In this document: positions 4,583-38,115 of the stretch, in pieces
Numbering within the stretch: the first letter of the stretch is position 1
Layout: every line of letters begins with the position of its first letter
DNA from: a virus
Strand: one strand, 5' to 3'
Virus record (IMG/VR): IMGVR_UViG_3300036761_003567
Coordinates: 43,224 to 107,223 of that record
Length of the DNA stretch: 64,000 nucleotides
Program-made: the position numbers and the translations under genes
The notes under the pieces: generated by a model
Database searches by the model: none
What the model was told of the DNA's origin: nothing
What the model saw: the letters and a program-made list of their open reading frames with translations, nothing else

Positions 4583-4610
4583 TTGAGCGCGGCCCCTTTA
4601 AGAGTATCCC

Positions 4611-5657
4611 ATGGCGAAAGAAAAAGATGAGTTCCAGGCCGAAGAGAAGGCGATCCAACATGCCTGGGATTCTGTCGAGAAGGACTTCGGCAAGGGTTCC
4701 GTCATGCACGGGCAGACGATCATCCGCGATATTGAGGCTATCCCGACGGGATCCCTTCGCCTGGACATCGCCCTCGGAATTGGGGGAGTTCCTCGTGGCC
4801 GTATCACGGAGATCTATGGTCCTGAGGCGTCAGGGAAGACGACACTCTGCATGGAAATTGTCAAGAACGTCCAAGCCAAAAAGGGCCGGGCAATGTTCGT
4901 TGACGTCGAGAACGCCTTCGACTCTGCCTATGCCAAGAGGATTAATTTAGACATGGACAAGCTCTACCTTTCCCAGCCAAACAGCGGCGAACAAGCCTTA
5001 ACCATCGTCGAGAGGTTCGTAGCATCGAATGCCATGGACCTTATCGTCATCGATTCCGTCGCCGGCCTGGTCCCCCAGGCAGAATTGGAAGGCGACCTCA
5101 TAGATAAGCAGATGGGCGCCCAGGCAGCCCTCATGTCAAAAGCCTTACGCAAGCTGGCGCCCATCGTAAACAAGACGAAGACCTGCGTCATTTTCACGAA
5201 CCAGCTGCGAGAGAAGATCGGAGTCATGTTCGGAAATCCGGAGACGACATCCGGAGGCCGCGCTCTGAAATATTGGGCGTCTGTCCGGATCGAGATCAGG
5301 CGCCTTTCGACCGTCAAGGAAGGAGACGATGCCGTCGCCATCATCGTCCGCGCCAAGGTCCAGAAGAACAAGGTCGCCCCGCCGTTCCGCCAGGCCGAAT
5401 TCAAACTCGTCTTCGGGAGAGGCATCCAAAGGGAAGCTTGCATTGCCGACATGGCGGAGCAGTGTGGTATCCTGAAGAGGGCCGGCGCCTGGATTTGCTT
5501 CAAGGACGAAAAGATTGGGAACGGCATAGATCAAGCTCTTAAATTCCTTGTAGAAAGGCCCGAGATAACAGCGGAACTGGAGAACCTGGTCCGGGAGGAG
5601 ATCCGGAAGAGGGACGTGATCATCAGCAAACCGGAGGAGGAAGCGCCGGAGGAATAA
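4611..5657 (+). CDS. recA: RecA recombinase (bacterial type)
   Basis: IPTGSLRLDIALGIGGVPRGR, Walker A GPEASGKTT, IDSVAGL, FTNQLREKIGVMFGNPETTSGGRALK, KNKVAPPF. Confidence 0.97.
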   Translation: MAKEKDEFQAEEKAIQHAWDSVEKDFGKGSVMHGQTIIRDIEAIPTGSLRLDIALGIGGVPRGRITEIYGPEASGKTTLCMEIVKNVQAKKGRAMFVDVENAFDSAYAKRINLDMDKLYLSQPNSGEQALTIVERFVASNAMDLIVIDSVAGLVPQAELEGDLIDKQMGAQAALMSKALRKLAPIVNKTKTCVIFTNQLREKIGVMFGNPETTSGGRALKYWASVRIEIRRLSTVKEGDDAVAIIVRAKVQKNKVAPPFRQAEFKLVFGRGIQREACIADMAEQCGILKRAGAWICFKDEKIGNGIDQALKFLVERPEITAELENLVREEIRKRDVIISKPEEEAPEE

Positions 5658-5688
5658 AAGATACGCCAGGCCCAATAGGAGTCTGGCT

Positions 5689-6081
5689 ATGGCTATTGTC
5701 AGCGCATTCCGGATCGATGACGTCGTGTATCTAAGGTCCTCGGCGCAGATCGGCTTCCTGGAAGCCTACAAGATCAGCGGGATCTTCCAGCTCAGGAACG
5801 ACCGGTATGTCTACACGATCGACATCAACAGGAGGCCGCCGTCCGCTCAGACGCTCGGCGACCATATTGACCTGAAGCGCATCCAGACGCTCTACTTCAC
5901 GGAGGATGAGCTTCTGACGTTCTGCGAGGCCGAGACGCTTGTCGTGCAGAATCTCGAGAGAAGGCTGCGGGAGGAGAAGGCTCGGTTCGCTGCCAGATGT
6001 TCAGTTTCACCAGGATCGGGAAGCACCGGTCCGACTCCGCCTGGAAGCGGGAGCGCCGGATCAACTGGGAGTGCCCCATGA
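5689..6081 (+). CDS. hypothetical protein with G/S/P-rich tail
   Basis: AGGAG SD; AAAAGATA motif upstream. Confidence 0.65.
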   Translation: MAIVSAFRIDDVVYLRSSAQIGFLEAYKISGIFQLRNDRYVYTIDINRRPPSAQTLGDHIDLKRIQTLYFTEDELLTFCEAETLVVQNLERRLREEKARFAARCSVSPGSGSTGPTPPGSGSAGSTGSAP

Positions 6082-6527
6082 ACAGACGATCTCTTTTAAA
6101 AGCCCTCACACTCCTCCCATTTGCACCCCTGCTCGGACGCAAGACAGAAGCAGCCATTCCGAATGGAGAAGACGACCTAGCCTATTGGCGGCGCATTCCG
6201 AATGGAGAAGACGACCTAGCCTATTGGCGGCACAAAGTAGAGCATTGCGAATCGATTGGGGACCATAAGAAGGCAGAGCTTTACCGCAGGAGACTGCTGC
6301 TCGCCGAGGACGTCGCTCTAATCCACGACATCCAACGGGCCAGAAATGGTCGGAAATTCTCTATGCACGTGGAACGTGTTGGTCGGGAAACTCTTTGCGT
6401 CACGATTCCAGCCGACCTATCGCCCCAGGAGGCCGTGAAGTATCTCGATTCCATAAAGAGACACTTTCGAAAAGTTGGGTGTCGCAATGCACGACGAGGT
6501 CTGGCACAAGCATATCTATTTAGCTGA
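6078..6527 (+). CDS. Tat-signal-like protein carrying a T4 gp20 portal-like fragment
   Basis: ATG at 6078 overlaps the previous stop; MNRRSLLK plus hydrophobic stretch; LLLAEDVALIHDIQRA...DLSPQEAVKYLDSIKRHFRK resembles portal [16 protein letters not shown]...GNMPARKA. Confidence 0.6.
   Translation: MNRRSLLKALTLLPFAPLLGRKTEAAIPNGEDDLAYWRRIPNGEDDLAYWRHKVEHCESIGDHKKAELYRRRLLLAEDVALIHDIQRARNGRKFSMHVERVGRETLCVTIPADLSPQEAVKYLDSIKRHFRKVGCRNARRGLAQAYLFS
6155..6231 (+). repeat. 39-bp in-frame tandem duplication (IPNGEDDLAYWR twice)
   Basis: cattccgaatggagaagacgacctagcctattggcggc at 6155 and 6194. Confidence 0.95.
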
Positions 6528-6536
6528 ACAAAAAGA

Positions 6537-7949
6537 ATGTCAGACGAACAGACCCTTCACGATAAGGATTCTCGCACGTTCGGCGAGAACGAAGAACAAG
6601 CCATCATAGCGCTAGCCTTCGACCTCCCGGAGTTTTTTAGCTCCGTCGTGCCCTACCTCCAGATCGATCACTTCAAGCACATCCCGTCCAAGTTCCTGTT
6701 CGCCATCATCAAGAAACTCATAGAGAAGCACCGGGTATCGCCGACCCGCGGCCTGGTAAAGGACATTGCCAGGAAGAATCTCACGGTCGATGACGATTAT
6801 GAGCCGATCATCTCCCTCATCGACAAGCAGTCTGATCCCCGGGAAGCTCCGGTTGTCAAGCAGTCCGTCGTCGAATTCGCCAAGCGTCGCGCCCTGGGAC
6901 TCCTCTACTCCAAGGAAGTCATGGAGGAAGTCTCGCGCGGAAATTATGACCGCGTGAACGAGATCGTCGAATCAGCCAGGAAGATCACCGACGTCAGCCA
7001 GACGGGAATCTGGTTCTTCGAGCGCGCTCACGAGCTCTTCACGGTGGAGAATGAGATCAAGTTCACGACGGGCTTCCCGAAGCTGGATAGGTACATCAAC
7101 GACGGCGGGCCTACGATAAGCGACGTCTTCGTCTGGATGGCTCCGACTAACGTCGGCAAGACTTACATGCTCTGCAACACGGGCGAGGCTAACGTGCGGG
7201 CCGGGCACAACGTCGTACACTTCTCCTTCGAAGGAGACATCAAGAAGACCCAGGTCAGGTACGCCGGCGCATTCACCAATGTGCCGGTCGTCACGCATAT
7301 GCATCGGATGGCGCACAAGGATCAGATCACGCAAATCCTGAGCCGATGCAAGGCCCATTATGGAGCGGAACTCGTCCTCTACAAGTTTCCTGCGGACGAG
7401 GTCAGCGTAGACACCCTCCATCAGGTCATGGACTTCCTGAGGCGGAACAAGGGCTTCAATCCGAGAGTCGTGATTATCGACTACCTGGAACTCATGGTCT
7501 CGCGGAACAAGTTCATGAACCGGGACGATTACGCTAGACAGAAGTCCATCTCCACGGAGCTGTGCGGATTCGCCGACAAGGAAAACGTGGCAGTCTTCAC
7601 GGCGACGCAGACCAACCGGTACGGCATGAACGAGGAAGAGCAGTCCAGCAAGAAGACGGCCGGGACTGGCGGCGGGAAGTCAATCGACCTGGATAAGATC
7701 GCAGAGTCCTTCGGGAAATCTATGCCGCTTTCCTACGTCGTGAGTATCAATCAGACGAAGAACGAATACGAGGCCGGCTACGACGCGAGCCGGGCTGAAA
7801 ACACAGCCGCCCGAGCGAGACTCTTCATCGCCAAGAATCGGAACGGTCCGAAGTCCGAGACAGTAGCTATCCGTATGAACTACGTCACCATGAAGGCCAA
7901 GGAGGACGAGCCGGCCGTCAACATTACGACGGTAGGCGGGAATTCCTAA
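6537..7949 (+). CDS. replicative SF4 DNA helicase (DnaB / T4 gp41-like)
   Basis: TTGFPKLD, Walker A APTNVGKT, SFE, IIDYLEL, ATQTNR, IAKNRNGP. Confidence 0.92.
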   Translation: MSDEQTLHDKDSRTFGENEEQAIIALAFDLPEFFSSVVPYLQIDHFKHIPSKFLFAIIKKLIEKHRVSPTRGLVKDIARKNLTVDDDYEPIISLIDKQSDPREAPVVKQSVVEFAKRRALGLLYSKEVMEEVSRGNYDRVNEIVESARKITDVSQTGIWFFERAHELFTVENEIKFTTGFPKLDRYINDGGPTISDVFVWMAPTNVGKTYMLCNTGEANVRAGHNVVHFSFEGDIKKTQVRYAGAFTNVPVVTHMHRMAHKDQITQILSRCKAHYGAELVLYKFPADEVSVDTLHQVMDFLRRNKGFNPRVVIIDYLELMVSRNKFMNRDDYARQKSISTELCGFADKENVAVFTATQTNRYGMNEEEQSSKKTAGTGGGKSIDLDKIAESFGKSMPLSYVVSINQTKNEYEAGYDASRAENTAARARLFIAKNRNGPKSETVAIRMNYVTMKAKEDEPAVNITTVGGNS

Positions 7950-8308
7950 TGCCAACTTACAACTACATCTGCGAACATCACAAGACGGAAGATAGTCAGG
8001 ATTTCGTCTTCGAAGTCAATCACGGCATGAACCAGAAGCCGGAAGTCCTCTGTCCCCAGTGCAAGAAGCCCTGTAAGAGGACTTGGCTGGGGATGACGTT
8101 CCAGTTCTTCTTCCCTGGCAATGGGCTGGTCAGAGATAAGGCAGGCGCCAGGCGTAGTATGAACCTACACCAACTCGAGAACGACGACCCCTATGGTTAT
8201 ATGCGCCAGCCGGGCGAGAAAGCGGACTTGGTGGACAAGCTCCGAAAGGGCGGCAAGCACCAGGGACACCCGAAGGTCATCGCGACCCACGGGATCAAGA
8301 AGAAATGA
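7949..8308 (+). CDS. FmdB-like Zn-ribbon protein
   Basis: MPTYNYIC...FEV.H.M....CPQC. Confidence 0.7.
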   Translation: MPTYNYICEHHKTEDSQDFVFEVNHGMNQKPEVLCPQCKKPCKRTWLGMTFQFFFPGNGLVRDKAGARRSMNLHQLENDDPYGYMRQPGEKADLVDKLRKGGKHQGHPKVIATHGIKKK

Positions 8309-8631
8309 GCTACTGTGGAATGCGTTTTCCAGGGTCGCCAGGTCTACTTCAAATGAAAACGTGGTACAGCGCCATCTGTCGCAAATGTGGAGAGGGCGCG
8401 CAGATCTTCGTCTCAAATCCGAGCTGTACTATGGCCTACCTTGGAGAGAAGGATAAGGAGATTCAAGCCTTCCTAGAGAAGCACTTCGGATGTGAGCTCG
8501 AGCTCATCTGGCGGGATGACCAACTGGACGCACTCTTCAATTCGGGCTGGAAAGTCAGCATTCTCCCGGGCGTCTGCCGTTATTTCCGACCGGAAAGTAT
8601 TTCATCTCCGTGTCCAAGCACGCCTTCGTAA
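8305..8631 (+). CDS. hypothetical protein
   Basis: Fills the gap between flanking genes; CxxC...HxxC; start uncertain. Confidence 0.5.
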   Translation: MSYCGMRFPGSPGLLQMKTWYSAICRKCGEGAQIFVSNPSCTMAYLGEKDKEIQAFLEKHFGCELELIWRDDQLDALFNSGWKVSILPGVCRYFRPESISSPCPSTPS

Positions 8632-9794
8632 TGTGTCAGTACACGAAGCAGTCCTCTCGTCCGCTCATGGCTGCCTTCATGGACGACGGGAGTGATGCCG
8701 TCAGATCGTACCCCCTGCTTCTCTCTGGCGTCGGTCTCAGCTTGAAGACGGTCTGGGAGAGCGCAAAGGCCATCCTTGGAGAATTCAAAGGGAGTCCTCT
8801 TCCCGCCGTAACGATGAACGACTTCAAAACGGTCCTTGATTTCCTGGACCGCGAATGCAACCTACTGGCGCATCCGTTTAACGTCTGGGATTTTGGCATC
8901 CCGAAGCAGCCGAATTACGGCACGCTGTCCGCCGAGAGGGCAAGGGAGATCTGCGAGAAGCTCGTCCGCGGCGTTGCCAGCATCCAGCCCACCCCCTGGA
9001 TGAAGCTGCTTGGAAGAGCCACGCAAGTCTACCACATGCTCCAAAAGCGCGGTCTCATGAATGGCCATCTTCTTACCTATCCTCGGTATGTCCTCAACAC
9101 GGTCAGTGGCCGGTCGAAGACGCTGGGTTTCAACGTCCAGGGGACGGACGCATCCTATGACGTGAAGCACCCCGATGAAGAAAAATCCTATTTCATCCAT
9201 CTGGACTGGATCTCAGCAGACCTTAAGGCTGGCCAGATCCTGAGCGGGGACGAGCTCCTTGCTGAAGCCTTCAGGAAGTCCGATCCCTACACCGTCATGG
9301 CGAAGGGAGACCTGACCCGGGCAGATTGCAAGGGCATGATGATCCGTGCGCTCTATGAAATGGATCAAGATAGTCCAGCCCTTCAGTTCTGGCCAGACCT
9401 TCAAAAATGGGTCGCGGTCGAAAAAGCCAAGTTGGAAGACAGAGGCTGGACGGAGTCCGTTCTGGGTAGAAGGTTCAGAATGGCCACAGAAGGCGATCCT
9501 CTCCACAATATGAGGAGCGTATTTAACGCCTCGCTCCAGGGGACGGTAGTGCACGCCATGCACAACGCCCTCTGGCAGATTTACAAAGTGATGCCTGATT
9601 GTATCGTGGCGGAGATGCACGACTCGATTACTCTGGCAGCGAACAGGCATGCGATTAAGGAAGTTCTGAATGTCGGCGTCGAAGCCATGCTCCATCCGTT
9701 CAAGGACATACTAGATAGCAATCCGACGTTTCCGCTTCGGATTTACGTCGGCCGTCATTGGAAGAAGTGGAAGCTTTACAAGGAAATCCGATGA
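8610..9794 (+). CDS. minimal family-A DNA polymerase-like protein
   Basis: TVSGRS..FNVQ, motif A DWISADLK, motif B R.DCK....LY, NASLQG, motif C MHDS. Confidence 0.8.
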   Translation: MSKHAFVMCQYTKQSSRPLMAAFMDDGSDAVRSYPLLLSGVGLSLKTVWESAKAILGEFKGSPLPAVTMNDFKTVLDFLDRECNLLAHPFNVWDFGIPKQPNYGTLSAERAREICEKLVRGVASIQPTPWMKLLGRATQVYHMLQKRGLMNGHLLTYPRYVLNTVSGRSKTLGFNVQGTDASYDVKHPDEEKSYFIHLDWISADLKAGQILSGDELLAEAFRKSDPYTVMAKGDLTRADCKGMMIRALYEMDQDSPALQFWPDLQKWVAVEKAKLEDRGWTESVLGRRFRMATEGDPLHNMRSVFNASLQGTVVHAMHNALWQIYKVMPDCIVAEMHDSITLAANRHAIKEVLNVGVEAMLHPFKDILDSNPTFPLRIYVGRHWKKWKLYKEIR

Positions 9795-10291
9795 CAGCCC
9801 CCAAGAACAAATGGTTTGCCGACAATATTCCTGAGGACGTTGCGAATATCGTCGTCCGCATCCACGTTAAGGTGCCAGGTGGCGGCACCATCTCTCGAGA
9901 CTTTAGGACTGATGTAGAAATAGACTACGACAATCTCGAAGAGCAGCTCGCAAGGACACCAAGCGCGTTTTCTTATTGGGCCGGAGTCATGAGCGAGCAG
10001 AAGATGGTGGTCGGCGTATTCGAGCGCAAGATAAAGAGACGCAGAGCCATAGTCGCAGAACAGATCCTTAATACAGCCAAGGCAGAAGGCGTTTCCCTGC
10101 GTGCCGCAGACATAAAGGAACTCATTGAGGCAGATGACATTCTGGAGAAGCTGGAAGCGGAGCTCCTGATCGCGCAGAGGTCCTCTGGCAAGCTTTACAA
10201 CATCGTAGAAGCGATAAAGATGAAGTCTGAACATTTGCGGTCATTGGCGGGCTTTAAGAGACAAGAACTCAGGGACGCCGGAAGCGTGTAG
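9791..10291 (+). CDS. UvsY-like recombination mediator
   Basis: Helical ~166-aa protein between the polymerase and SSB genes; EQLARTP..F.YW and LRSLAGFKRQE end. Confidence 0.6.
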   Translation: MTAPKNKWFADNIPEDVANIVVRIHVKVPGGGTISRDFRTDVEIDYDNLEEQLARTPSAFSYWAGVMSEQKMVVGVFERKIKRRRAIVAEQILNTAKAEGVSLRAADIKELIEADDILEKLEAELLIAQRSSGKLYNIVEAIKMKSEHLRSLAGFKRQELRDAGSV

Positions 10292-10327
10292 GCCGTATTT
10301 CACGGAGAACCATTAAAGGAGGAAGTC

Positions 10328-11404
10328 ATGACAGTGATCCGGGAGAACGAGGACATTGCGCGAATCCGCAAGCTGATGCAGGACAAGAAGGGCGGCGGCC
10401 AGAAGGATCCGAATGAGTTCCGGTTCCCCAAGGCCAAGGAAAACGAGACGCTCACTTACTACATCAAGTTTCTACCGCCCGTTCCGAGCATGGGCGACCT
10501 CTGGTTCTACATGAACGGCAGCCACTTCATCGACAACAAGCGGCTGGAATGCCCGCGCATCCACGACCAGGGAGCGGAATGCCCGCTCTGTCAGTTCGGC
10601 TTCCAGCTGATGGACGGGATGGACAAGGAGCAGAAGAGCAAGATTGCCAAGACATACCTCGCCAGGAGCTACTACGGCGTCAACATCTACTTTCCACAGT
10701 CCACCAACGTGCAGGAAGATCTCCGCGGCAAGGTCTTCTGGGCCAACATCCCGAAGACGCTCTACGACAAATGCGAGGAATGCATCCTGCGGGACGACGC
10801 AGGAAGCGAGGATGATCCCGCGCCGTTCGGCCTGTTCTACAGCGAAAAGGCCGGATACGTCATGAAGGTCGTCATCAAGAGCAAGGGCGGCTACAACAAC
10901 TACGAAGAGTCCAAGTTCCTGGTCACGACCAAGGGGCCTCTGTCCAAGGACGAGGCCAAAGTCAAGGAGATCCTGTCCAGGCGGCATGATGTGCCTACGA
11001 AATTCGTTGCACGCGATCTGGCGGCGCTCCAGGCGAAGGTGGACCAGATCCTGAAGAAACCGTCGACCGTCACGGCGGGAGACGATGCCGGCTTCCACGA
11101 GGATCACACGGAAGAACAGCCCGTGGCAGCCAAGTCTGCGCCGGCCGCAAAGCCCGCGGCAGCCAAACCTGCCCCAGCAGCAGCCAAGTCTGCGCCGGCC
11201 GCAAAGCCCGCGGCAGTCAAACCTGCTCCTCCTGCGGAGGAATTCCAGGACGAGGTTACGGAGGAAGCTCCTGCCAAGCCATCGGCTAAGACAGCGGCCG
11301 CAAAAGCTGCGCCTGCGCCGGAGCCCGAGGAGTCTCCGGCAGATGGTGGGCCCATCGCGGACGCGGAAATCGACAGCCTACTGAAGGAAATCAAGGACGA
11401 GTAG
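10328..11404 (+). CDS. single-stranded DNA-binding protein (T4 gp32-like)
   Basis: IKFLPP, H...CP....CPLC Zn site, Y.ESKF, acidic tail EIDSLLKEIKDE; strong SD. Confidence 0.85.
   Translation: MTVIRENEDIARIRKLMQDKKGGGQKDPNEFRFPKAKENETLTYYIKFLPPVPSMGDLWFYMNGSHFIDNKRLECPRIHDQGAECPLCQFGFQLMDGMDKEQKSKIAKTYLARSYYGVNIYFPQSTNVQEDLRGKVFWANIPKTLYDKCEECILRDDAGSEDDPAPFGLFYSEKAGYVMKVVIKSKGGYNNYEESKFLVTTKGPLSKDEAKVKEILSRRHDVPTKFVARDLAALQAKVDQILKKPSTVTAGDDAGFHEDHTEEQPVAAKSAPAAKPAAAKPAPAAAKSAPAAKPAAVKPAPPAEEFQDEVTEEAPAKPSAKTAAAKAAPAPEPEESPADGGPIADAEIDSLLKEIKDE
11126..11226 (+). repeat. 54-bp tandem repeat in the Ala/Pro/Lys linker of the SSB
   Basis: gcagccaagtctgcgccggccgcaaagcccgcggcag at 11126 and 11180. 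Confidence 0.9.
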
Positions 11405-11429
11405 CCGGTTCTGCTAAAGCGTAATCGGA

Positions 11430-11460
11430 GGCGGGCGCGGGACACCGCGCCCGTTTCTTT
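11430..11460 (+). terminator. intrinsic terminator after ssb
   Basis: cgggcgcgg-gaca-ccgcgcccg followed by tttcttt. Confidence 0.7.
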
Positions 11461-12312
11461 ATGAAGCACCTCCTGGTAGACGGCCGCAACTCGATCTACC
11501 GCGCCATGTTCGCGGGAATGGCGGACCCTGCCTTCCGAAAGTCCGGGTTCCACACCATCATCATCTTCGTTCGGTTCCTCCACCACTACCTCCGCACGTT
11601 CAGGCCATCAGAGATCCACGTATTCTGGGATGACAAGCCAGAAAACCTCTGGCGCCGGAAATTCTTCCCGGCTTACAAGGCACAAAGAAAGGCGGAGCGC
11701 GACAAGAGGAACGCCTTTGACGTCGATAAAGTCATGGCAGATTGCGTCAATGTTGCCATGGCGATCATACCGGAAATGGGCATCCGGATGTACTTCCGTG
11801 AGACACAGGAAGCGGACGACCTAATTTACGCGTTCATTCAGACCCTGCAGGACAAGGAGTCCGCGACGATAGTCTCCAGCGATAGCGATTTCGTACAGCT
11901 CGAGAAGGGAAATGTTCATGTCTTCAATCCGATGCACACTGGACACCGGAAGGAATATAGATATCCTCTCTTAATGAAGTGCATGATGGGCGACAAGGCC
12001 GACAACATTCCCGGCTATGTCGGCATAGGTCCCAAGAGGGCTGCGAAGCTCTGTGAGAATGATGGTGAAATGAAGGCCTTCCTGAAGACCAGGGGCATCA
12101 AGACGCTCGTCGATAATAGGTTCCTCATCGATATGTCGAAGTGCCCGTTCGTTGAGGACAATGTCAAGTACGTCAAGGCTATAAGATCCTCACGCCCTGT
12201 CTTCAACGGGCCTGCCATAGAGACGGCAGCAATGCGGCTCAAGATCCGGGGTCTCATAGGGGAATTCCATAGATTCGTCCTCCCATTCAAAAATCTAACC
12301 AGGATAAGTTAA
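11461..12312 (+). CDS. 5'-3' exonuclease / flap endonuclease (T4 RNase H-like)
   Basis: LLVDG, WRR..FP.YKAQR, EADD, SSDSDF.QL, GDKADNIPG..GIGPK. Confidence 0.92.
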   Translation: MKHLLVDGRNSIYRAMFAGMADPAFRKSGFHTIIIFVRFLHHYLRTFRPSEIHVFWDDKPENLWRRKFFPAYKAQRKAERDKRNAFDVDKVMADCVNVAMAIIPEMGIRMYFRETQEADDLIYAFIQTLQDKESATIVSSDSDFVQLEKGNVHVFNPMHTGHRKEYRYPLLMKCMMGDKADNIPGYVGIGPKRAAKLCENDGEMKAFLKTRGIKTLVDNRFLIDMSKCPFVEDNVKYVKAIRSSRPVFNGPAIETAAMRLKIRGLIGEFHRFVLPFKNLTRIS

Positions 12313-32597: not shown

Positions 32598-33269
32598 ATG
32601 CAGCAGGGCCATCGCCAGGAGAACATGAGTGCTATCATTCAGCACGAGAGGGCCGTCCAGAAATGGACGGCGCTCATGCCGAAGGTCCGGGATCTCATCT
32701 ATGCAGGGAAATCCGTCCAGGAAACCGCCAATGAGCTCAAGCTTGCCTATTCCTATCTCATAGAGTATGTCAAGGAGGACCCGCAGCTCAAGGCCAGGGC
32801 AAGGCAGTCCTGGCTGGAAAAGATGAGTTCGCCTGAGCATAGGGCGCTCCTATCCAGGACCGGACGCGAACGGGCCCAGAACCGGAGCCCGGAGGCCCGG
32901 CAACAGGCGGCTGAACGCACCAGGAAGTGCTGGCAGGATCCCGCCTTCCGCGAGAACCACGTGCGAAAGATCCGCCAGAAGTGGCAGGATCCGGAGTATC
33001 GCGCCAACATGGAACGCAAGTGGAATGATCCAAACTGGCGGGCTAAGCTATCCAGTAGCCTGAAGGGCAGTACTGCCTTCCAGGCTTCCTTCGCGACCAA
33101 GGACACGAGCTTCCGACAGGACCCCGCGTGGCGGGCCCGAGTAGCAGAGAACATGAAGGAGGAATGGAAACGCAGGGGCTTCTGGACCTGGATCAAATCT
33201 TTCGACCCGGAAAAAAGAAAGAGGATACTTCAGGCAATTTATGCCTGGAAGAAGAAGCAACATGCATGA
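32598..33269 (+). CDS. HTH + W-x-D-P repeat protein, paralogue 1
   Basis: GKSVQETANEL; WQDP repeats; FWxWxxSFDPEK tail. Confidence 0.75.
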   Translation: MQQGHRQENMSAIIQHERAVQKWTALMPKVRDLIYAGKSVQETANELKLAYSYLIEYVKEDPQLKARARQSWLEKMSSPEHRALLSRTGRERAQNRSPEARQQAAERTRKCWQDPAFRENHVRKIRQKWQDPEYRANMERKWNDPNWRAKLSSSLKGSTAFQASFATKDTSFRQDPAWRARVAENMKEEWKRRGFWTWIKSFDPEKRKRILQAIYAWKKKQHA

Positions 33270-34246
33270 CCAAGTTTGAAGAGTTAGGATCTCACCTCCC
33301 AAGGATCCTAGAGCTTATCAAGGCCCAGGAGACGACGAGGTCTATCCCGCGCATCCTGGGGTGCAGCAGGACAGCCTTTAGGGAGTTCCTTTGGGATCAT
33401 CCAGAACTATGCACGGAACTTAGGGCAAATTATGCGGCCAGGCGGTCAGAAGTAGGTCGCAGGAACGCGCAGCAGGTCATTCAGAAGCGGCTCAGTCTCC
33501 CAATAGAGGAACAGGCCGCTCTGGCCCGGGAAAGGGTCGCTAGAGCCGTCAAGGGTGCAAGGGTTTCTGCCGCACTGGCTCGCGAGAAGTCCAGGCAGAA
33601 ATGGGCGGGGCTCATGCCCAAGGTCTACGAACTCATCAACGCAGGGCAGTCGGTACAGGAAATAGCTGACGAGACTGGTATAGATTTTTCTGTCATATAC
33701 GATCGCCTGAAGATTGATCCACGGCGGTCGGAACTTATGACTAGACTGAGACAGACCCGCTGGGAGCACCTCCACAGTCCTGAATACAGAGCCCTCCATT
33801 GCGAGCTGGCCCGCAAGGAGATGAAGGATCCGGAAGTTATCAGAAAGTTGTCAGAAGCTACTAAGAAGAAATGGTTAGACCCGTCCTTCCGTCAGGCTGC
33901 CGTACAAGTAGCATGTGCGAACTGGGAGCGCCCAGAGTATCGAGCGCGCATGGAACGCCTCTGGAACGACCCGAAGCACCGGGCGATGCTCGCGGCACAC
34001 ATAGCCGAGCAGCGGAAAGACCCGGTCTTCATCGCCGCCTGTAGAAACCGGGACACGAGCTTCATGAAAGACCCGGAGCACCTGGCACTGATGTCCGAGG
34101 TCATGAAGAAATGGTGGAGCACTAGGGATTTCTGGGCTTGGGTGGATACGTTCCCGCCAGAAAAGAAGAAGCAGATCCTGTGCGCCATACATGCGGGGCG
34201 CGCTACGGCCGCGACTAACTGGAAAAGGTACAAACATGATTCATAA
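33266..34246 (+). CDS. HTH + W-x-D-P repeat protein, paralogue 2
   Basis: ATGA overlap; two HTH modules; same tail. Confidence 0.75.
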   Translation: MTKFEELGSHLPRILELIKAQETTRSIPRILGCSRTAFREFLWDHPELCTELRANYAARRSEVGRRNAQQVIQKRLSLPIEEQAALARERVARAVKGARVSAALAREKSRQKWAGLMPKVYELINAGQSVQEIADETGIDFSVIYDRLKIDPRRSELMTRLRQTRWEHLHSPEYRALHCELARKEMKDPEVIRKLSEATKKKWLDPSFRQAAVQVACANWERPEYRARMERLWNDPKHRAMLAAHIAEQRKDPVFIAACRNRDTSFMKDPEHLALMSEVMKKWWSTRDFWAWVDTFPPEKKKQILCAIHAGRATAATNWKRYKHDS

Positions 34247-35387
34247 TTGGAACGAGTTGATGTCTAAGATCCGAGAGGCCATTTTAGCCGGCAAGTCCGT
34301 CCAGGAAATTGCCAATGAGTTAGGCCTGGGTTTCGGAGCCGTCTACCATCACATCAATGAGGACCCCGCGCGCAACGAGCTAAGGGCAAAGCTGTACGAG
34401 ACGCGCCTAGCAAACTATAATACTCCTAAGTATAAGGCAGCTCTGCGTGCCAGGCTAACAGGGCGCATGCGCGTCAAGTATTACGAGATAGGCGATCATC
34501 TTTCCAGGATTCGAGAACTAATTGAGGCCGGAACGGCCGCGCGCGACATTCCTTCCCTATTAGGTTGTGGCGCATCTTCGTTTTTCAAATGGCTGAAGGG
34601 TCAGCCAGACCTTCTTGCCGTCGCGAAGGCATTCCAAAGGGCCAAGATGAAGGAAGGTAAACAACAAGCAGACCTTCGGCTCAGTGCTGAAGAGCGAGAG
34701 GCCCGTGCTGCCCATCAGCGGGAAGTTGTCAGGAGAACCTACGAACGCTGGCGGGCTAGATCTAATAAGGAATGGGCCGATCTCGCACCCAAGGTCAAGA
34801 GCCTCATTTTCTCCGGTGAGACGATAGTGGACGTCGCCGTTATGACTGGCATAAATGAGAAGGCACTTGGCGCCCGTATAGATGCGGATCCTCAGCGTGA
34901 CGAATTAAGGGAAAAGCTGTATGAAAACTGGCTTGCGCGTATTAACACTCCCGAGCATAAGGCACTACTCTCTCAGAATATGAGTAGACGTATGGAGGAC
35001 CCAAAAGCCAGGGAACATCTATCCCAAGTCACTAAAGAGCAGTGGGAATGTGGCGTTCATGATGGCCACTCTGAATTCATGAAAGAGCTCTGGAAGGACC
35101 CAAAATTCCGAGCCGTGTTGGAACGCCATGCGCGGAGTCCAGAAAGGCGAATGCAGTCGTCCGAAAGGATTAAGGCTTTGTGGCGTGATCCTGCCTTCGT
35201 AGCGGCTTATTTGGAATCTAGAAAGTCTCCTGGATTGCGGGCTAAGCTATCGGAATCCTTAAAAGAGTCTTGGAGCCATAGGGATTTCTGGGAATGGCTC
35301 AATTCGTTCGATCCAGATAAGCGAGCGGAAATCCTGAGAGCAATGCATGCTTCCAACGCGGCCCGCAGGGCCTTAAGATTGGCCTAG
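34236..35387 (+). CDS. HTH + W-x-D-P repeat protein, paralogue 3
   Basis: Three HTH modules; same tail. Confidence 0.75.
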   Translation: MIHNWNELMSKIREAILAGKSVQEIANELGLGFGAVYHHINEDPARNELRAKLYETRLANYNTPKYKAALRARLTGRMRVKYYEIGDHLSRIRELIEAGTAARDIPSLLGCGASSFFKWLKGQPDLLAVAKAFQRAKMKEGKQQADLRLSAEEREARAAHQREVVRRTYERWRARSNKEWADLAPKVKSLIFSGETIVDVAVMTGINEKALGARIDADPQRDELREKLYENWLARINTPEHKALLSQNMSRRMEDPKAREHLSQVTKEQWECGVHDGHSEFMKELWKDPKFRAVLERHARSPERRMQSSERIKALWRDPAFVAAYLESRKSPGLRAKLSESLKESWSHRDFWEWLNSFDPDKRAEILRAMHASNAARRALRLA

Positions 35388-36607: not shown

Positions 36608-37113
36608 ATGACCAGACAGACGAGATGCAGCCTGGGGCGCCGGGGACCTCAGAAGATCGATGCCAAGTCCTGGTACTACGAGTGCAAGGGCCGGATAGAG
36701 GTCGTCGTGGAATTCAGAGGCCCCGAGGGCAACTACCTCGGCACGAAACACGTCAACATCCAGGCGTCAAGGCTCAAGCGGTCGCTGGCCCGGATGGACA
36801 GGCGAAAGAGCCAAACTGTGCGGAGTACGCCTCGACGGTGAGGTCACTGGATCGGCCCTGTTGCCACAGCACTATTAAGGAAGAGTACTGTGCCAGAAAA
36901 TCCTGACCTCGGCTTGCGCCCTACGCAGCTACGCTTCCTGCGGCTGGAACCCGAGAGGTCCCTGACCGAGAAGCTGGACTTAGCAGTAGCCGCCCTCCAG
37001 GCGGTCTGCAAGGAAGACGGGCCCGGATGCGACCTTTCGCCAGCTGGACCCTGCTTTCACATCGCCGCGGAAGCACTGCACAAGATCGTCATCAAGTAAC
37101 CAGGAGGCACAAA

Positions 37114-38115
37114 GTGGGCGACCCTACAAGTCACGAGGCGCGAATTGATGCACTGACCGACGAGCGGGATGCACTGAAGGCCGGAGTAAACGGTCTAGTG
37201 CAGGAACGCGATATGTTGCGGACTCGGATAACCTGTGTGGAGGCCGCATACGAGAAACGCATCGCCACTCTGACTGCTGAGCGGGATGCGCTGAACAAGA
37301 TCGTCAATAGCCAGGAGGCTAAGGTGCCTGAAACAATCCGCGAAGGGCTCGTCAAGAAGGGTGGAGTGAACGAACCTCCCACGACGCCTCGACCGCCTCC
37401 TCCTAAGGGGCAATGTCCGCCTCCCGTGGAAGGATTTCATGACGGGAAACGATGCCCCTGCGAGTTCGAGGAAATCGAGCCCTGCGGCAGGATGTGCTCC
37501 TGCCGGAACCCGAATATGAGCGGTGCGTGTCGTCGCTGCTGTACTGTCGGATCTCCCGAGCAGCAACTGGCGAAGGCCCGGTGGCTGGTAGCCCGGGAAA
37601 TAAACTTCACTATCCTGACCCGCGAAGAGGCCATTGACAGGATCGGGAAGCTGGACGATCCCAAGCTTCGTCCGCTGATCAAGTGGATAGCGGAATCCCT
37701 GGCGTTCGGGCGGGTAGCTTATGACGTCAGGGTCAACATAGCTGAGGCAGAAAGGTCTGTGGAGAGGATCGTGGAAGGCCAAAACCCTGGAATCCCTGCT
37801 GGCGGCCTTGCTGACCATACACCCGACGTGAAGAAATGGCCCCCTCTGGACCCCGGTACGAAGGTGAAGACCACAAAGCCTTTCTGGTCTGGCCGCGGTG
37901 ACTGGACCGGAGAAGCTCTGGCGTCCAGGAAATGGGGCGTCAAGGGGACTATCCTCAAGCATCATGACTCCCACGGCCTTTGTTACGAAGTCCAGCACGA
38001 TGACGGGACGGTGGGCCATTATGACCCTTCGGAACTGGAAGTCCTAGACATATATCTGGACGTCCGGCCGGAGTGCTACCGCTCCAGGACGTCGCGCATC
38101 CGGGAGAAGAAATGA
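37114..38115 (+). CDS. mosaic hypothetical protein (coiled coil, Pro-rich, Cys-rich, SH3-like end)
   Basis: AGGAGG SD before GTG 37114. Confidence 0.65.
   Translation: MGDPTSHEARIDALTDERDALKAGVNGLVQERDMLRTRITCVEAAYEKRIATLTAERDALNKIVNSQEAKVPETIREGLVKKGGVNEPPTTPRPPPPKGQCPPPVEGFHDGKRCPCEFEEIEPCGRMCSCRNPNMSGACRRCCTVGSPEQQLAKARWLVAREINFTILTREEAIDRIGKLDDPKLRPLIKWIAESLAFGRVAYDVRVNIAEAERSVERIVEGQNPGIPAGGLADHTPDVKKWPPLDPGTKVKTTKPFWSGRGDWTGEALASRKWGVKGTILKHHDSHGLCYEVQHDDGTVGHYDPSELEVLDIYLDVRPECYRSRTSRIREKK

Follow-up and report, generated by a model that had tools for sequence, protein, structure and literature searches.

Portals are conserved phage proteins that bacterial immune receptors recognize, and the clip of the portal is the docking site of the packaging motor. 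In gp20, the portal protein of T4, residues 255 to 278 form the stem and residues 279 to 358 form the clip (PMC4493910). The T4 clip docks both the terminase gp17 and the neck, and a gp20 peptide spanning residues 288 to 311 binds gp17 and inhibits packaging (PMC4493910). SpbK docks on the portal clip helix (PMC12847820), and RAZR assembles on portal rings (PMC13017515). Here, we describe a short phage gene whose product carries part of a portal of this type behind a putative signal peptide or membrane anchor. Full-text literature searches yielded no description of a stand-alone, rearranged portal stem-clip gene, and the passages retrieved by a keyword text search of a catalogue of 268 anti-defense proteins contained no such portal copy.

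The locus and its phage

The window (the whole stretch of 64,000 nucleotides that was analyzed) makes up the right-hand 64 kb of an IMG/VR virus record that spans 107 kb and is rated 29% complete. Because this record encodes a contractile sheath, SbcCD, a split replicative polymerase, a PurZ-like enzyme, RecA, and a DnaB-like helicase, we take its source to be a jumbo myovirus. The features on which the following argument turns are collected in Table 1.

Table 1. Positions in the window of the accessory gene, its parts, and its neighbors
Feature	Position	Strand	Remarks
ORF130	5689..6081	+	Between recA and helicase lineage-wide; homologues in L010 and G002 directly adjoin the helicase
Chimeric accessory gene, 149 aa (P0001)	6078..6527	+	ATG at 6078, TGA at 6525-6527; five-member family
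Leader, residues 1-26	6078..6155	+	N-R-R-S-L-L-K, 12-residue hydrophobic stretch with two prolines, R-K, T-E-A/A
39-bp in-frame tandem duplication	6155..6232	+	13 aa, residues ~27-39 and 40-52
Helix 1, residues 42-55 (second repeat copy)	6201..6242	+	In either portal profile, the start of stem helix alpha7 gives the top local match
Portal-homologous block, residues 68-141	6279..6500	+	Corresponds to stem helix alpha5, first clip strand, and clip helix alpha6 of T4 gp20
14-residue insert, residues 95-108	6360..6401	+	Between portal R-K-F and T-I-P; in none of 69 lineage portals
DnaB-like replicative helicase	6537..7949	+	First ~10 codons travel with the cassette; first-8-codon remnant behind the L003 homologue

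An earlier note on this DNA, made from its letters alone, had placed the gene between recA and the helicase, and family matches on both sides bear this out (PF00154, 1.9e-111, for recA; PF03796 and phrog_19 for the DnaB-like helicase). The stop of ORF130 and the start of the gene overlap in the sequence ATGA, and a GGGAG is present 6 nt before the start, at 6067-6071. Since all four homologues begin at MNRRS, this ATG, and not an upstream ATG at 5997, is the real start. Neither promoter-like nor terminator-like sites adjoin the gene, and on this ground we assign it to the recA-helicase operon. ORF130 itself comprises a beta-rich N-terminal part followed by a Gly/Ser/Thr/Pro-rich tail; it has no family match, and T4 gp40, which was tried as a counterpart, is not similar to it.

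Several observations on the wider record deserve mention in their own right. Over positions 4600-11600, comparison of the window with a second phage contig, L001, gives a mosaic in which blocks of 100% identity (~6000-6800 and 7400-8800) stand beside others of 80 to 90% (recA and 9000-11400), a pattern that points to recent recombination between the two phages. Further along, GC climbs from ~0.54 to 0.60-0.65 across positions 38000-62000. Ten long ORFs in this part, and one at 37027-38115 just before the shift, had no Pfam match; four of the long ORFs in the 37027-62000 region were also scanned against PHROGs, again with no match. Two serine-recombinase-like ORFs lie at 33128-35387, shortly before the GC shift, and the high-GC segment may be a foreign segment, host flank, or a chimera. 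Outside the window, the PurZ-like gene (phrog_1211, 6.7e-35; G000:C1:14501-15820, in L006) hints that the phage may substitute 2-aminoadenine for adenine. A 958-aa helicase (G000:C1:26096-28972; L007:7096-9972) contains in mid-protein, at residues 350-551, a LAGLIDADG homing-endonuclease-like stretch that is probably an intein; the recA gene of a relative, G002, seems to be interrupted too.

Portal homology of the gene product

Standard database searches were all negative. Pfam, PHROGs, and NCBIfam assigned none of the five family members to a family (Pfam giving no match at E<=10), and neither a PDB profile search nor phmmer over 1.84 billion representatives returned a portal. Foldseek (against PDB and BFVD) and VIA-align, run on two AF2 models, found generic helical hairpins only, with Z <=8.2, and the ESM Atlas offered weak leads only. 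The earlier note had compared two peptide stretches of this ORF with a T4 gp20 motif. Both stretches are present in the translation and the motif was given accurately, as hhalign picks exactly residues 250-285 of gp20. The strength of this match is another matter; T4 gp20 as a single sequence reached an HH probability of 24%, and a profile of 40 enterobacterial T4-type portals reached 43.5%. This match lay above 412 column shuffles and 123 natural ORFs but would fail a database-wide correction, and the C-terminal part alone found nothing among T4-type portals.

It was only comparison with portals of the phage's own lineage that exposed the relationship, which we regard as a lesson in method. 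PF07230 finds no portal in the 107-kb record, the phage's own portal being absent from what is a 29%-complete sequence; lineage portals were reached via the tail sheath, through relatives at 46-53% sheath identity; four of these records carry PF07230 portals with E values of ~1e-71. Against the four portals, hhalign gave the family a probability of 94.8 (P 5e-8), and against 69 distinct lineage portals, this rose to 96.1 (P 3.4e-9, 60 columns); both alignments were collinear and ran through both of the stretches singled out by the earlier note. In the four-portal comparison, the real score was 59.8, versus a mean of 15.4 and a maximum of 26.7 for column shuffles and 14.4 for the reversed sequence. 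With HMMER, each of the five members fell on one and the same segment of the portal (P 7e-7 to 6e-5), and identity to the nearest portals, over ~59 positions, was 42% for P0001 and 46% for P0002. When the family profile was run in six frames over the whole records of the four relatives, it gave one match in each, always inside the portal gene. None of the five members matches the PF07230 model over most of its 433 positions; the shared part amounts to ~60 residues. Taken together, these profile comparisons establish, in our view, that residues ~59-141 derive by divergence from the stem and clip of the lineage's T4-type portal. The portal-fragment reading is thus upheld, although its significant support comes from the gp20-family portals of the lineage and from neither T4 gp20 itself nor structural comparison. 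A 424-aa repeat protein, P0006, was considered as a further candidate and discarded, its score having been inflated by four weak repeats.

The T4-based alignment begins at residue 59 (6252), and the shared block takes in the wing end, stem helix alpha5 (T4 255-278), and the clip up to its first third. The C terminus of the protein falls opposite T4 residue ~318, and no upstream part shows a match to the wing. Motifs shared with the lineage portals are a D-A-A-L-I-Y-R helix, an R-K-F/T-I-P strand, and the clip helix. Two charged residues of the portal signature, the D of the E-D-A motif and the R of R-A, are invariant in the family. The clip-tip residues by which T4 gp20 binds gp17 are conserved neither in the family nor between T4 and the lineage portals. 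As the earlier note had argued, a piece of ~70 aa is unable to form a portal, being without the wing, the crown, and the complete clip that a dodecameric ring requires.

The gap that had separated the two stretches in the note is also real and corresponds to the 14-residue insert (Table 1). AF2 places strands at residues 94-101 and 104-111, so that the insert and the strand after it make up a predicted beta-hairpin; on visual inspection, the insert looks like a repeat of this strand. The AF2 core model (pLDDT 72) consists of a helical hairpin, a beta-hairpin, and a helix, and in it the helix that precedes the block pairs with the alpha5-like helix. This preceding helix resembles alpha7 (T4 359-369; lineage portal 321-334) at P 0.0036-0.01, a level reached by 1 of 341 shuffles, with a match that rests on 14 columns. 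The arrangement is suggestive of a circular permutant, in which alpha7, a turn, alpha5, the strand hairpin, and alpha6 would follow one another as a self-contained stem plus clip tip.

A second resemblance lies over part of the same region. Residues 93-148 (6354-6521), which overlap the portal-derived clip helix, the 14-residue insert, and the nonconserved tail, match VanA by hhalign (Prob 77%, P 2e-5, 49 columns, 39% identity) and by BLASTP (2e-7), and VanA was the best match both in the PDB (E 0.03) and in NCBIfam (E 0.011). Within the ligase family, local matches are limited to VanA-type sequences; the Ddl family model PF07478 has no match in the record, and E. coli DdlB gave a probability of 0.2%. 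We provisionally treat this resemblance as chance or as convergence on a strand-helix unit.

Leader, duplication, and mobility

The family has five members. Searches of 5.8 billion clustered proteins and of 1.84 billion representatives gave P0001 four relatives, with identities to it of 81, 72, 68, and 37%. Neither phmmer over the 1.84 billion representatives nor a word-index search for longer proteins revealed fused or longer forms. A search of 185,579 prokaryote genomes did not find the leader sequence, nor did it turn up in any additional viral contig.

All members start with the same leader, and its layout is as the earlier note had described it, with RR at residues 3 and 4, SLLK, a 12-residue uncharged stretch, RK, and TEA-A, an arrangement kept in all five. 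Near the N terminus, every member has N-R-R-S-L/I/M-L-K/G, which fits the Tat twin-arginine consensus S/T-R-R-x-F-L-K. The uncharged stretch varies from 12 to 16 residues among members, is leucine rich (mean Kyte-Doolittle value, 1.75-2.0), and is followed by a glycine and R-K; small residues occupy positions -3 and -1 in four of the five. Of the 165 other ORFs in the record, a simple rule for N termini of this kind selected none, and of Met-started sub-ORFs it selected 0.18%. The Tat-signal models PF10518 (Pfam, E<=1) and TIGR01409 (NCBIfam, E<=10) gave no match, although HMMER filters may drop short weak matches. Measured against described Tat consensus features (PMC5539426), the basic residues of the c-region are a Tat trait, whereas an h-region rich in leucine is closer to Sec signals. 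Conservation is highest in the first 22 residues (73% identity in the member with 37% overall) and is lower in the body, an unusual pattern for a plain signal peptide. We describe the leader as a putative twin-arginine-type signal peptide or membrane anchor. Export of the 149-aa protein appears on balance the better supposition and, given export, we lean with similar caution toward Tat as the route.

Immediately behind the leader lies what the earlier note had called a fresh 39-bp duplication, and so it proved. Tandem Repeats Finder reports it at 6155-6231, with a period of 39, 2.0 copies, and 100% matches; read by eye, the two units differ solely in their last base (A at 6232 versus G at 6193, Arg to His). 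L001 carries the duplication base for base, and since its recA is ~15-20% different, the repeat is not an assembly artifact. At the same place, the homologue P0004 has an independent, older tandem duplication of 20 aa, and P0005 has an unrelated insert behind its leader. Judging from these alignments, the region directly behind the leader is a hot spot of length change where the helix has repeatedly been lengthened.

Every indel among the members is in frame. In the one pair with DNA sequence for both genes (with L003; 46 changes), dN/dS was 0.69 overall, with values of 0.41 for the leader and 0.84 for the remainder. The overall ratio does not lie significantly below 1, and by this estimate the gene is fast evolving. 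With respect to decay, which the earlier note had tied to a dN/dS near 1, the signs are divided: the ratio leaves room for it, whereas the ORF is intact in five lineages down to 37% identity.

Because L010 (helicase 69% identical) and the more distant G002 (44%) keep recA, the ORF130 homologue, and the helicase adjacent to one another without the gene, we regard it as an accessory insertion. In the contig L003, what is shared with the window is limited to the gene from its ATG onward and the first ~30 nt of the helicase gene (L003:239-692 versus window 6078-6568). This promoterless cassette lies in L003 between two copies of a local ribosome-binding motif, AAAAGGAGAA(A)GGACATG; the remnant of the helicase start (its first 8 codons) there forms a 13-codon mini-ORF whose TGA overlaps the ATG of the next gene. 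Its surroundings, small zinc-ribbon genes and an HNH gene, are unrelated to the window. The gene also has the lowest GC3 (0.51) and the lowest codon index among its neighbors. These comparisons show that the gene, in the replication operon of a jumbo myovirus, is an accessory insertion that is horizontally mobile and moves as a cassette.

Possible functions and relation to known systems

We tentatively favor, from sequence, the view that the product is a monomeric portal stem-clip mimic, exported or membrane targeted, that competes for a portal partner. The surface it would copy is the portal face that contacts neighboring subunits, the large terminase, the neck, and, in other hosts, portal-sensing immune proteins, and the mimic would compete for one of these candidates: terminase or neck, portal protomers, or a host sensor. 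The leader might carry it as far as the inner membrane, the site of nucleation of T4-type portal rings, or across it, and early coexpression with the replication genes would have it ready before the real portal is made. The 14-residue insert turns a single clip strand into the predicted hairpin, and the helix before the block, possibly derived from stem helix alpha7, would complete the permuted stem and clip tip. Several points weigh against this mimic. A cleaved export signal would deliver it to the periplasm, where there is no terminase, portal, or known portal sensor. The h-region of the leader is more like that of Sec signals, and Tat-signal HMMs do not match it. The phage's own portal is absent from the 29%-complete record. 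The gp17-binding tip residues of T4 are not retained, the dN/dS is compatible with relaxed selection, the alpha7 resemblance is short, and part of the body is also VanA-like.

A possible, if somewhat unlikely, alternative is that the portal piece has been exapted as a folded scaffold of an export protein. The leader would then be a Tat or Sec signal, and the mature 12-kDa protein would act in the periplasm in a role unrelated to portal partners, such as control of the envelope or of lysis, or superinfection exclusion. Spackle and other small secreted proteins of T4 work in that compartment. The conservation of a canonical signal-peptide layout throughout the family fits such a role, as do an acidic early mature region and weak language-model neighbors that include Tat-signal clusters; fast evolution, repeated in-frame duplications by the leader, and cassette mobility are likewise typical of conflict genes. 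However, the protein resembles neither Spackle, the T4 periplasmic superinfection exclusion protein (hhalign Prob 0.14%), nor any PHROG or PADLOC-type family that was searched. The invariant D and R of the portal signature hint at retained portal-like contacts, and a leader more conserved than the body is odd for a simple signal peptide.

It is unlikely that the gene is evolutionary debris, i.e., a captured and rearranged portal fragment in a hyperplastic region that persists as an ORF through chance or weak selection, without function. In its favor, the dN/dS ratios of the one pair are not significantly below 1, codon usage is not adapted, and a family of five among billions of proteins is small. 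Yet the ORF has stayed intact, at similar length and with its indels in frame, in all five lineages; the leader is constrained, and the cassette has spread to an unrelated phage context with translational coupling kept on both sides.

We consider it improbable that the product is a membrane-tethered portal-assembly factor or poison, its uncleaved hydrophobic N terminus anchoring at the inner membrane a portal copy that would bind protomers and either nucleate the ring, in the role of gp40, or cap the rings of coinfecting relatives. Assembly of the T4 portal ring takes place on the inner membrane and involves gp40 and YidC (PMC4493910), and gene 40 sits exactly between uvsX and gene 41, which is the position occupied here. 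The strongly conserved N terminus, with basic residues on both sides of a short hydrophobic stretch, would suit an anchor. Against this, T4 gp40 (phrog_999) was rejected as a relative of P0001 (hhalign Prob 0.15%, no PHROG match), and the gene is missing from relatives that keep recA, ORF130, and the helicase, which argues against a core assembly factor; the L003 copy lies in another context, and 12 residues, two of them prolines, do not suffice to cross a membrane.

The earlier note had offered, as guesses at function, a decoy (with Avs4-type sensors in view), a dominant-negative inhibitor of competing phages, and an exported protein that reuses portal helices, all of which stay conjectural. 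The leader, if it truly exports the protein, argues against a cytoplasmic Avs4 decoy. The two halves of the protein might in principle cooperate, the mimic binding a cytoplasmic Avs4/SpbK-type sensor or a rival's terminase and Tat then removing or sequestering the complex. Tat does carry folded partner proteins in what is called hitchhiking, but we hold this variant to be very improbable. Least probable of all is that the portal likeness is convergent or fortuitous and the C-terminal third stems from a VanA-type D-Ala-D-Lac ligase (ATP-grasp) fragment; the VanA matches above, and some short ATP-grasp matches by Foldseek, are outweighed by a portal match that is stronger (P 3e-9), extends in the right order over the helix and the strand-helix unit, gains strength as the profile deepens, and is recovered by unbiased genome searches, while PF07478 and E. 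coli DdlB fail to match and no Ddl appears among the 1.84 billion representatives.

If the mimic that we favor does bind a portal partner, it would offer a natural template for packaging inhibitors or sensor blockers, and the gene would be a fragment of a structural gene turned weapon or shield.

Among the nearest known systems is the T4-type portal itself (gp20, PF07230), with whose lineage members the product is collinear over ~60 residues. At 149 aa, compared with 520-700 aa, it is without the wing, the crown, the tunnel loop, and the rest of the clip, and it adds the leader, the hairpin insert, and possibly permuted stem helices. With Tat signals, the leader shares a polar residue, R-R, x, two hydrophobic residues, and K; the short h-region, the basic c-region residues, and the small residues at -3 and -1 in four of the five members recall such signals in outline. 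It differs from them in an h-region rich in leucine and proline rather than glycine and alanine, in its short length (25-26 aa), and in being more conserved than the mature part. Like T4 gp40, the protein is small, is encoded between a RecA-like gene and the replicative helicase, and has a link to portal and membrane; unlike the window gene, gp40 has no N-terminal hydrophobic leader, and the window gene is not conserved in relatives. The T4 gp20 peptide 288-311 (PMC4493910) has its equivalent here in a clip helix held inside what is predicted to be a folded unit; the T4 peptide, however, is an experimental tool and not a gene, and the tip residues differ. The logic of the proposed mimic also recalls that of DSAD1 against DSR2 (PMC11087589), in which a small phage protein occupies the sensor's site for a structural protein. 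In the present phage, the sensor would be a hypothetical one, and the leader may remove the product from the cytoplasm. Moreover, DSAD1 is not described as derived from the tail tube (PMC11087589), whereas the candidate described here would be a copy of a fragment of the trigger itself.
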